From a phage, in sequence record PX309103.1: DNA of 39,129 nucleotides, one strand, 5' to 3'. Below, in pieces: positions 776-39,129 of the stretch. The notes under the pieces were generated by a model. The model did not search any database. It had not been told where the DNA came from and saw only the letters and a list, made by a program, of their open reading frames with translations. The translations under genes were made by a program, and so were the position numbers. Position 1 is the stretch's first letter; every line of letters begins with the position of its first letter.

Positions 776-1285
776 ATGGAACGTAACGCTAACGCATACT
801 ATGAGCTGCTGGCTGCAACCGTTGAGCTGTTCAATGAGCGTATTCAGTACGACGAAATAGCTGAAGGCGATGACTACAGCGATGCGCTGCATGAGGTCGT
901 AGACGGTCAGGTCCCGCACTATTACCACGAGATTTTCACGGTGATGGCTGCTGATGGCATAGACCACGAGTTTGAGGACTCTGGGCTGATGCCTGAGACC
1001 AAGAACGTAACGCGTATACTACAAGCTCGCATCTATGAGGCACTTTATAACGATGTGTCTAATAGCTCTGAGGTGGTCTGGTTTGAGGCTGAAGAGAGCG
1101 ACGAAGAGGATGAATATTGGGTAGTTGACACTAGAACAGGCGAGATAATTGAGCAAGCTGTATCACTTTACGAGGCTACTGCATGTGCAAAAGAACTCTA
1201 TGAGGAAGGTTTTCACATGCAGGTCGAAGACATCAACGATAACGTAGTGTTCGACCCTGCGGCTGCTGAGGAGGATTGCGAGTGA
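776..1285 (+). CDS. ocr: Ocr-like anti-restriction DNA-mimic protein (T7 gp0.3 family) with C-terminal extension
   Basis: 169 aa, very acidic; the segment VPHYYHEIFTVMAADGIDHEFEDSGLMPETKNVTRILQARIYEAL matches recalled T7 Ocr; GAGGA RBS; first gene after the early promoter region. Confidence 0.85.
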   Translation: MERNANAYYELLAATVELFNERIQYDEIAEGDDYSDALHEVVDGQVPHYYHEIFTVMAADGIDHEFEDSGLMPETKNVTRILQARIYEALYNDVSNSSEVVWFEAEESDEEDEYWVVDTRTGEIIEQAVSLYEATACAKELYEEGFHMQVEDINDNVVFDPAAAEEDCE

Positions 1286-2533: not shown

Positions 2534-5215
2534 ATGAGCGTCATCTCTATTGACAAACACGACTTCTCTGATGTGTCAAACGCCATTGAGCCGTTTAACC
2601 TGCTGGCTGACCACTACGGGCAAGACCTTGCAGTCAAACAGCTTCAGCTTGAGCATGAGGCATACACTGAAGGCGAGCGACGTTTCATCAAAAACCTTGA
2701 GCGACAGACTGAGCGCGGGGAACTGGCAGACAATCAGGTCGCCAAGCCTTTGATGCAGACTCTGGTCCCTAAGATTGCGCAAGCAGTCAAGGAGTGGCAC
2801 GAAGGTCCAGACGGGAAGCTGTCAACCTCTCGTCCTAGCGTAGCGTTCACCATGTTGAGCACTGAAGAGAAGGCCGTCAAGGACCGCTCTATGCGCATCT
2901 CCTGTGAGTCCGCTGCGGTTATCATACTGAAGGTAATACTCTCCAAGCTGGTCAAGCCCGAAGGGATACCGATTACACCTATGGCCTCCGCGATAGGTCG
3001 CACACTTGAGGACGAAATCCGCTTCGGTCGCATCCGTGACAAAGAGAAAGAGCACTTCAAGAAGGCGATAGCTGATAACCTGAATAAGCGTGCCGGGGCA
3101 TCCTACAAGAAAGCCTACATGCAAGCGGTAGAGGCATCCATGCTGGAGCAAGGCCAACTGGAAGATGCGTGGGGGACTTGGAGTCCTACAGAGGCTGTCC
3201 ACGTTGGCATTAAGATGCTCGAGATTGTCATCCAGTCAACACAACTTGTCGAGCTTAAGCGTTACGGTGCTGGCAATGCAGCGACTGACGTAGAGATGGT
3301 CCACCTGTCAGACTTCTGGGTCAAGAAGATGGCACAACGAGGATTCAGCCTTGCGGGTATCGCTCCTGTCTACCAGCCTTGCGTCGTTCCACCAAAGCCG
3401 TGGACTGGTGTCGTAGGCGGTGGGTATTGGGCCAAAGGTCGAAGACCATTGCCACTGATTCGCTTAGGGTCTAAGTCTGCGGTAGCACGTTACGAAGACG
3501 TGTACATGCCTGAAGTCTATGACGCTGTGAATATCATCCAGAATACACCTTGGAAAGTGAACAAGAAGGTATTGGACGTGGTGAACATGGTCGAGAAGCT
3601 GAACAACACGCCTATTGATGACATCCCTCAGATGGAGCCGCTGAAGCCTGAGGACTATGCTGGTGAGACCGAAGAAGAACTCAAGGCATGGAAGAAGGCT
3701 GCTGCTGGTATCTACCGCCGAGAGAAGGCCCGGCAGTCACGTAGATTGTCACTGAGCTTTATCGTTAACCAAGCGAACAAGTTCTCTCAGTTCAAGGCCA
3801 TCTGGTTTCCGTACAACATGGACTGGCGCGGTCGCGTCTACGCTGTGCCGATGTTCAACCCTCAAGGCAACGACATGCAGAAGGGTCTCCTGACTCTGGC
3901 AGTCGGCAAGCCTATTGGTGCTGACGGTTTCAAATGGCTGAAGGTCCACGGTGCAAACTGCGCGGGTGTCGATAAAGTCACCTTCGAGGAGCGCATCAAG
4001 TGGGTGGAAGACAACCACGAAAACATCATGGCTGCTGCTAAGGCACCGATGGATAGTATTGAGTGGTGGGGCAAGTTAGACTCTCCGTTCTGTTTCCTCG
4101 CGTTCTGCTTCGAGTATGCTGGCGTAATGCACCACGGCCTGTCTTACTCCTGCTCGCTGCCGATAGCGTTCGATGGGTCCTGCTCTGGTATTCAGCACTT
4201 CAGTGCGATGCTTCGTGACCACATCGGTGGACATGCAGTAAACCTGACGCCATCCGGTATGGTACAAGACATCTACCGCATTGTGTCTGACCGCATTGAG
4301 GAGGAGCTTAAAGTCCTGCTGATTAACGGTACTGACAACGAGATGGTCACTCACGAGGACAAGAAAACTGGTGAGATTACCGAACGTATCAAGCTGGGGA
4401 CACGAGAGCTGGCCCGTCAGTGGCTGACCTACGGGATGTCACGTAAGGTCACTAAGCGTTCAGTCATGACTCTGGCATACGGGTCGAAAGAGTACGGCTT
4501 CGCAGACCAAGTTTACGAGGACATCGTGATGCCAGCGATTGACTCAGGGTCTGGCGCTATGTTCACCGAGCCGAGCCAAGCGTCTCGCTTCATGGCTAAG
4601 ATGATTTGGGAAGCTGTGAGTGTGACTGTAGTTGCTGCGGTTGACGCGATGAAGTGGCTTCAAGGTGCTGCCAAGCTGCTGGCTGCTGAGGTGAAGGACA
4701 AGAAGACTGGAGAAATCCTGAAGCCTTGCCTTCCGGTACACTGGGTAACACCTGATGGTTTCCCGGTCTGGCAGGAATACCGCAAGAAGGATACCACTCG
4801 TCTGAACCTGATGTTCTTAGGGTCATTCAACCTTCAGCCTACCGTCAACAGAGGTACGAAGAAAGAGCTGGACAAACACAAGCAGGAGTCAGGAATTAGC
4901 CCGAACTTCGTCCACTCACAAGATGGTAGCCACCTCCGCAAGACTGTAGTCCACACGCACCGCAAGTATGGCGTGATGTCATTCGCAGTGATTCACGATA
5001 GCTTCGGGACCATCCCGGCTGACGCTGAGTATCTGTTCCGTGGCGTCCGTGAGACGATGGTCGAGACCTACCGCGACAACGATGTGCTGCTTGACTTCTA
5101 CGAGCAGTTTGAATACCAGCTTCATGAGAGCCAGCGCGACAAGTTACCTGAGCTACCGAAGAAAGGTAAACTGAATATCGAGGACATCTTGTCTTCAGAC
5201 TTTGCATTCGCTTAA
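2534..5215 (+). CDS. Single-subunit DNA-dependent RNA polymerase (T7 gp1 family)
   Basis: 893 aa; motifs DGSCSGIQHFSAM, HDSFGT and C-terminal ...DFAFA match T7 RNAP. Confidence 0.97.
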   Translation: MSVISIDKHDFSDVSNAIEPFNLLADHYGQDLAVKQLQLEHEAYTEGERRFIKNLERQTERGELADNQVAKPLMQTLVPKIAQAVKEWHEGPDGKLSTSRPSVAFTMLSTEEKAVKDRSMRISCESAAVIILKVILSKLVKPEGIPITPMASAIGRTLEDEIRFGRIRDKEKEHFKKAIADNLNKRAGASYKKAYMQAVEASMLEQGQLEDAWGTWSPTEAVHVGIKMLEIVIQSTQLVELKRYGAGNAATDVEMVHLSDFWVKKMAQRGFSLAGIAPVYQPCVVPPKPWTGVVGGGYWAKGRRPLPLIRLGSKSAVARYEDVYMPEVYDAVNIIQNTPWKVNKKVLDVVNMVEKLNNTPIDDIPQMEPLKPEDYAGETEEELKAWKKAAAGIYRREKARQSRRLSLSFIVNQANKFSQFKAIWFPYNMDWRGRVYAVPMFNPQGNDMQKGLLTLAVGKPIGADGFKWLKVHGANCAGVDKVTFEERIKWVEDNHENIMAAAKAPMDSIEWWGKLDSPFCFLAFCFEYAGVMHHGLSYSCSLPIAFDGSCSGIQHFSAMLRDHIGGHAVNLTPSGMVQDIYRIVSDRIEEELKVLLINGTDNEMVTHEDKKTGEITERIKLGTRELARQWLTYGMSRKVTKRSVMTLAYGSKEYGFADQVYEDIVMPAIDSGSGAMFTEPSQASRFMAKMIWEAVSVTVVAAVDAMKWLQGAAKLLAAEVKDKKTGEILKPCLPVHWVTPDGFPVWQEYRKKDTTRLNLMFLGSFNLQPTVNRGTKKELDKHKQESGISPNFVHSQDGSHLRKTVVHTHRKYGVMSFAVIHDSFGTIPADAEYLFRGVRETMVETYRDNDVLLDFYEQFEYQLHESQRDKLPELPKKGKLNIEDILSSDFAFA

Positions 5216-38949: not shown

Positions 38950-39129
38950 TCTCACAGTTCAAGAACCTCAAGTCTCCCCATAGGCCCTCTTTAAGTCCAG
39001 ACCAAAGGCCCTACCCCCAGTCTATCATAAGGTTGGACCGATGGTCAAGACTTCAGGTCGACGATAGGTCTAGGCTATGGCTGGAGGTTAGACGATAGGT
39101 AGGGGCTATAGGTCTGTCTCTGTGTCTCT
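38950..39129. repeat. Right direct terminal repeat (180 bp), identical to 1-180
   Basis: Read directly from sequence. Confidence 0.95.

Follow-up and report, generated by a model that had tools for sequence, protein, structure and literature searches.

A long-form Ocr with an optional acidic C-terminal module encoded by gene 0.3 of a K1F-like phage

Introduction

Gene 0.3 of the phage genome PX309103.1 encodes a protein that is best read as a genuine Ocr to which an acidic, optional module, predicted to fold separately, has been appended, and on balance this module probably acts as an accessory protein-interaction cap. Ocr is the textbook example of a DNA-mimic anti-restriction protein; the core of T7 Ocr forms dimers that imitate bent B-DNA and block type I restriction-modification (R-M) enzymes as well as BREX methyltransferases. 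To our knowledge, T7 Ocr is the sole characterised member of the family, all mechanistic work having been carried out on this protein of 117 aa. Long-form gp0.3 proteins have been present in the databases since the sequencing of K1F, where they are annotated as 'ocr-like anti-restriction' only; what has gone unremarked in the literature searched is the extra domain.

Results

The window, i.e., the whole stretch of DNA analysed here (PX309103.1, 39,129 nt), is a complete linear T7-like genome of the K1F-like Kayfunavirus type, beginning TCTCACAG. Its first 180 nt (1-180) are found again at 38950-39129 as a direct terminal repeat, and position 1 therefore corresponds to the genome end. Around gene 0.3, the DNA is 87-96% identical to that of Kayfunavirus genomes, e.g., K1F, PR_Kaz2018, and PDP351P3. 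Gene 0.3 (776-1285, on the + strand like all features of this gene and its neighbour given below) is the first early (class I) gene, located near the left end and upstream of gene 1, which encodes a T7-type RNA polymerase (2534-5215). According to the list of open reading frames, it starts with ATG and ends with TGA at 1283-1285, encoding a long-form Ocr of 169 aa; a Shine-Dalgarno-like GAGAGGA, read from the sequence, lies at 762-768, 7 nt 5' of the ATG. A scan for sigma-70 promoters upstream of gene 0.3 gave matches no more numerous than those in shuffled sequence. Both the coordinates and the C-terminal sequence quoted in the original prediction were correct.

The gene that follows (1282-1440, taken from the same list) is a small early gene of the gp0.4/0.35-like type with a GTG start and a product of 52 aa. 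This start and the stop of gene 0.3 overlap in GTGA, a hint of translational coupling. PF26807 (Phage_T7_GP04) is found in its orthologues from related contigs, and the 52-aa product itself had no match in a local copy of Pfam. The interval from gene 0.3 to the RNA polymerase gene (1285-2534) contains only small ORFs of 43-108 aa, with no gene 0.7-type protein kinase, whereas in KP32, IME15, and Ebrios a serine-threonine kinase (0.7) lies directly 3' of ocr.

The Ocr family identity of the N-terminal part is solid on the grounds of sequence comparison. Pfam ocr (PF08684) covers residues 7-99 (E 1.7e-31; 109.1 bits with a cut-off of 25), PHROG 2568 ('ocr-like anti-restriction') matches the protein at E 3.8e-56, and the solved T7 Ocr (PDB 1s7z) aligns with residues 8-111 (E 8.2e-27), showing 53% identity over 106 aligned positions. 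The whole protein contains 45 acidic and seven basic residues and has a pI of 4.05, with a net charge of -16 for the core (residues 1-98; 776-1069). In alignments, neither F54 nor L82 varies among 119 long forms or across T7, short, and Ebrios-type forms; in T7 Ocr, these two residues belong to the dimer interface and to the residues touched by AriA of PARIS (PMC10802264). Mutagenesis of T7 Ocr has located acidic residues important for DNA mimicry in the Mut1, Mut2, and Mut12 segments (PMC3439906), and acidic character is retained here at 16 of the 17 positions of the Mut1/Mut2/Mut12-3 segments. The distal helix-D set (Mut4) is acidic at only two of five positions, three of the five T7 acidic residues being lost in the K1F-type core. 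Together with the position as first early gene, these features bear out the description of the protein as an Ocr-like DNA mimic, and a T7-like anti-restriction function of the Ocr part would be expected from homology. In the full-length AF2 model, the helices of the core (7-26, 35-59, and 75-95) agree with the helix layout of T7 Ocr. Against the PDB, however, this model gave no Foldseek match at E < 0.001, and 1s7z was not among the structures listed. Poor modelling of residues 51-80 in the monomer (pLDDT 46-60) is probably the reason why 1s7z was missed.

The original prediction had the alignment with T7 Ocr extending over ~115 residues. The homology as such holds, but the close similarity stops near residue 95, where the predicted helix D also ends, and residues 96-112 (NSSEVVWFEAEESDEED) form an acidic linker unlike T7 that is common to many short Ocr proteins (109-115 aa) of Kayfunavirus, Przondovirus, and SP6/K1E-like phages. 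Standing in place of the distal part of T7 helix D, residues 99-112 (EVVWFEAEESDEED; 1070-1111) comprise eight acidic and no basic residues and are coil in the AF2 model. T7 Ocr resembles the present protein in its homologous helical core with F54 and L82, in the acidic residues of the segments that imitate DNA, in a pI close to 4, and in being encoded by the first early gene, but it ends after 117 aa in a long helix D and a disordered acidic tail, without the extra domain of 55 residues. In the T7 structure, the C-terminus presumably points away from the dimer interface and is located at the distal tip of each monomer. Since a truncation of T7 Ocr lacking residues 99-116 (Ocr99) was unaffected in anti-restriction (PMC3439906), the distal C-terminus can be regarded as a permissive site for an add-on.

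The true extra part of the protein spans residues 113-167, which agrees well with the extension of ~50 residues noticed originally; the C-terminal segment quoted at that time, ACAKELYEEGFHMQVEDINDNVVFDPAAAEEDCE, corresponds to residues 136-169. Of the 120 best protein clusters (clustering at 90% identity), 118 keep the frame of the extension open and conserved, their members showing 69-97% identity and lengths of 162-179 aa. In a tblastn search of 50,697 phage records, the module was detected in 72 phage genome records, in every case inside gene 0.3; this is roughly one in eight of the phage records that encode an Ocr in the collection searched.

Structure prediction, which had been proposed as a check of the extension, yielded a beta-beta-alpha-beta-beta module at residues 113-160 (1112-1255), obtained with AF2 both for the module alone and in the full-length model and in line with column conservation. 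In the full-length model, it consists of strands 114-118 and 124-129, a helix at 131-143, and strands 148-151 and 157-159. As AF2 reached a pLDDT of 91.2 and a pTM of 0.76 on the module alone, residues 113-160 are predicted to be an autonomous, separately folding domain. The overall pTM of the full-length model was 0.54, suggesting that the module has no fixed orientation relative to the core. With 16 acidic and two basic residues, the module of the present allele has a net charge of -14 and a pI of 4.05. It is followed by the acidic tail PAAAEEDCE (residues 161-169; 1256-1282), of which the ending EEDCE is common to short forms.

Pairwise comparison of five long-form genes (10 pairs) revealed dN/dS values of 0.21-0.56 for the module and 0.06-0.18 for the core, all of them below 1; the module is thus constrained coding sequence, evolving 2-4 times faster than the core. 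Over 119 sequences, the hydrophobic core, G122, G145, and H147 are nearly invariant, as is, according to column statistics, the strand 3-4 motif V-E-D-I-N-D-x-V-V-F-D-P (residues 150-161). The variable positions (119, 120, 123, 124, 132, 133, 135, 140, 141, 143, 144, 146, 148, and 149) map to the hairpin of strands 1 and 2, to part of the helix, and to the loop behind it (144-149). The variants fall into three linked haplotypes, and the present phage and K1F carry the minority, most acidic one (LYEA[TI]ACAKELYEEGFHMQ), while the commonest allele is less acidic, with a net charge of about -9.

It had been pointed out at the outset that the extension might turn out to be a sequencing frameshift, or to be present in characterised Ocr proteins as well. 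T7 Ocr is without it. An artefact, whether a frameshift or a read-through into the neighbouring ORF, might be suspected from the fact that some database entries are frameshifted or chimeric (P0106, L007-L009, and L046-L047), but it is excluded by independent genomes, conservation, and dN/dS: the same frame of 166-169 aa recurs in phages sequenced independently from 2005 onward (K1F, SH3, CLB_P1, LM33_P1, and others), and the extension is under purifying selection and has a confidently predicted fold.

K1F-type modules and tails also display two conserved cysteines, C137 (1184-1186; 108 of 119 sequences) and C168 (1277-1279; 105 of 119), together with H147 (1214-1216), which is found in 118 of 119. 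From these residues, a metal-binding site at C137/H147/C168 is conceivable. In modules of the Ebrios type, a Cys precedes the aromatic pair in four of five sequences, and VED is preceded by Cys-His.

The same architecture as in the present protein is found in K1F gp0.3 (YP_338090; 169 aa), with which it shares 95.9% identity, and in the other long-form Kayfunavirus proteins, making it a member of this group. In several GenBank records, e.g., those of ZH4, CY1, LM33_P1, and IME177, the long-form Ocr is mis-annotated as 'protein kinase'. A second module clade was identified in Ebrios, Stenotrophomonas phage IME15, and several Aeromonas phages, the Ocr proteins of which have 172-174 aa. Their C-terminal 60 residues are only 27-30% identical to the K1F-type module but have its length and share its pattern (aromatic pair, G, SLE.A, Y, G, VED, V.[FY].P), differing in the positions of cysteines and histidines and in the absence of the EEDCE tail. 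Unlike the present genome, the phages of this clade have a 0.7 kinase gene beside ocr. Since this diverged clade shares the structural pattern, the module is older than the Kayfunavirus radiation.

At the DNA level, the module is an optional cassette with cassette-like indel boundaries, present in some related phages and missing from others, with repeated changes between the two states. Alignment of the DNA with that of L013-L020 and K1F delimited an in-frame cassette of 165 nt, or 55 codons, at 1112-1276, bounded by GA[AG]GAGGAT direct repeats in acidic-codon tracts, with the left copy GAAGAGGAT at 1103-1111 and the right copy GAGGAGGAT at 1268-1276. Its removal in silico leaves ...AGCGACGAAGAGGAT joined to TGCGAGTGA, encoding ...SDEEDCE followed by the stop, and this is the exact tail of the 114-aa Kayfunavirus Ocr in L017-L020. 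Other short forms, of 110 aa, end in ...EAEEDCE or ...EAEEGDE. In general, the short K1F/KP32/SP6-type Ocr proteins (109-115 aa; PE3-1, KP32, and mutPK1A2) have the same core, the same linker motif YNDV..S..VW[FY]E, and acidic tails (EEDCE in Kayfunavirus, EDCDD in the KP32 type), but are without exactly the 165-nt cassette, the junction lying at the GA[AG]GAGGAT repeats. The start junction of the gene after 0.3 is the same, GAGTGATGG (in the window, GAGTGATAG), in the long- and short-form phages compared.

Further variants of the gene were found. Salmonella phage PRF-SP1 (L005, 504-887) encodes an Ocr of 127 aa that has a T7-like distal helix D and only the last 13 long-form residues (SVVFDHAAAEDCE), a combination indicating recombination between Ocr subtypes within the gene. 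Long forms interrupted by frameshifts of the homopolymer type were seen in metagenome assemblies: in L007-L009 (3667-4180 of L007), one additional G in a G-run splits the frame into 117 + 59 aa, and in L046-L047 (1070-1569 of L046), a frameshift after EYWVVDAK results in 123 + 41 aa, while P0106, also from a metagenome, has Ocr fused in frame to a gp0.4-like tail. These interruptions may be real inactivations of the module or assembly errors. As short and frameshift-interrupted forms are common, the module would seem to be dispensable in at least some settings. A search for a gene that occurs only in short-form phages and could supply the module in trans produced one candidate family, which is spurious, being an out-of-frame ORF across the 0.3/0.4 junction. 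An origin of the module by internal duplication was likewise dismissed: the likeness between the linker DVSNSSEVVWFEAEE and strand 4 plus tail VEDINDNVVFDPAAAEE is suggestive, but at E 0.06 not significant.

Searches for relatives placed the module in no described protein family: Pfam, PHROGs, and PADLOC with four module variants, as well as the PDB by sequence, gave no match at E up to 1-10. In a collection of 5.8 billion proteins, single-sequence and two-clade profile searches returned only P0121 and P0127 as apparent free-standing modules, and both derive from long ocr genes split by a frameshift, of which they are the downstream half; the tblastn search mentioned above detected no module outside gene 0.3. 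An HMM profile run against 1.84 billion cluster representatives gave five matches, all to long repeat proteins and over short stretches of at most 13 bits each, in a library that did not return the long Ocr proteins themselves, presumably because these are placed under short-form cluster representatives, so that fusions in other clusters could be missed. The five matches were judged to be motif-level likeness and were not accepted as homologues. One of them, P0122, is a giant Thr/Ser-rich protein of 2313 aa with at least four copies of CKELYS.GSLTARSM.VEDINKAVGYDP (residues about 1095-2172). Its repeat (CKELYSSG...VEDINKAVGYDP) resembles the helix-strand 3-strand 4 part of the module (CAKELYEEGFHMQVEDINDNVVFDP) at no more than 13 bits per copy, and this resemblance may be convergent or may reflect a distant relationship.

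Regarding structure, small alpha/beta folds of this kind are very common. Foldseek of the module against BFVD revealed many uncharacterised phage proteins of 45-90 aa with TM scores of 0.6-0.7, none of them at E < 0.01. The best structural match was a small alpha/beta unit of the ClpS/L7-L12 type, the fold matches to ClpS, T4 Dmd, and AcrIF9 being weak. The ClpS or ribosomal L7-L12 C-terminal domain fold was rejected, as its full core of three helices on a three-stranded sheet is not present. T4 Dmd (PDB 5HY3 chain B) and AcrIF9 share 9-17% identity with the module (Dmd 9%), with fold scores too low for homology. A Dmd-type antitoxin was rejected as well, since there is neither sequence or profile homology nor a free-standing gene; unlike a small gene of the Dmd type, the module never stands alone in the collections searched.

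Discussion

The long-form gp0.3 described here is a known anti-restriction protein in an architecture for which we found no earlier description, and not a new kind of system. A flexible acidic linker connects the module to the last Ocr helix, which would place one copy at either far end of the dimer. There, as an accessory interaction or shielding cap, it could change what binds at the ends of the DNA mimic. Such a cap might give Ocr a new or broader host target, or it might make Ocr harder to recognise for the abortive-infection systems that sense it, and the module would then be kept or lost according to the defences of the local host population. Ocr is sensed by PARIS, Ronin, and EcoR22I (PMC10802264; bioRxiv 10.1101/2023.04.06.535777), which gives the presence/absence polymorphism and the fast evolution of the module surface a plausible selective reason. 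In the literature searched, we found no functional data on any long-form Ocr and no paper describing the extra domain. A more specific form of this idea, which we consider possible but rather unlikely, is that the module serves counter-counter-defence, blocking the sensing of Ocr by PARIS AriA, Ronin, or R-M systems of the EcoR22I type, either at the ends of the Ocr dimer or bound to a host factor, or neutralising a further defence system. If this were true, the repeated gain and loss of the module and its three helix haplotypes would record an arms race at a third layer.

Other readings of the module need to be weighed against the cap. Being as acidic as the core (the 16 acidic and two basic residues and the pI of 4.05 given above), it might simply lengthen or strengthen the DNA mimic, forming a charge block at the dimer ends that compensates for the shortened, less acidic helix D, without any separate target. 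The loss of the three distal helix-D acidic residues of T7 from the K1F-type core would fit this, and so would the near invariance of E151, D152, D155, and D160 in strands 3-4. We nevertheless regard a pure extension of charge as doubtful, because short forms (110-115 aa) with the same K1F-type core outnumber the long ones and are maintained in several genera although they have no module, the distal residues of T7 Ocr are dispensable for anti-restriction (PMC3439906), the commonest module allele is the less acidic one, and a rod-like mimic would not obviously be continued by a compact globular unit on a flexible linker.

Still less probable is an independent second anti-defence effector, such as a Dmd-like antitoxin or an Acr-like inhibitor, that would be directed at another defence system and could work alone. 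Among 5.8 billion proteins and 50,697 phage genomes no free-standing homologue was present, P0121 and P0127 being split ocr genes; identity to Dmd is 9%, no fold score is at the level of homology, and the fold is widespread. Finally, the module might be a passenger that is almost neutral, or it might have a purely structural task, such as helping the protein to fold, stay soluble, or oligomerise or shielding the acidic tail from proteases, and take no part in evading defences. Its repeated loss (110-aa, 114-aa, and interrupted forms), a dN/dS above that of the core, and a ClpS/L7-L12 type unit as the best structural match would be consistent with this reading. It seems very unlikely, however, as the dN/dS of the module is well below 1 in all 10 pairs, its hydrophobic core and surface acidic motif have hardly changed over 119 sequences, and it has been retained in two clades diverged to about 28% identity.

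Gene 0.3 of these phages provides a conserved orphan domain that occurs in about one in eight of the Ocr-encoding records searched, including K1F-type coliphages that are therapeutic candidates, and that comes and goes through simple indels mediated by repeats. Ocr has become a model trigger for systems that sense anti-defence proteins, such as PARIS. The natural matched pair of 169 aa and 114 aa makes it testable whether an appended domain tunes the target range of a DNA mimic or its evasion of sensors, and the natural deletion series bears on how anti-defence proteins escape sensing. If the module has a target of its own, it would represent a new small anti-defence fold.
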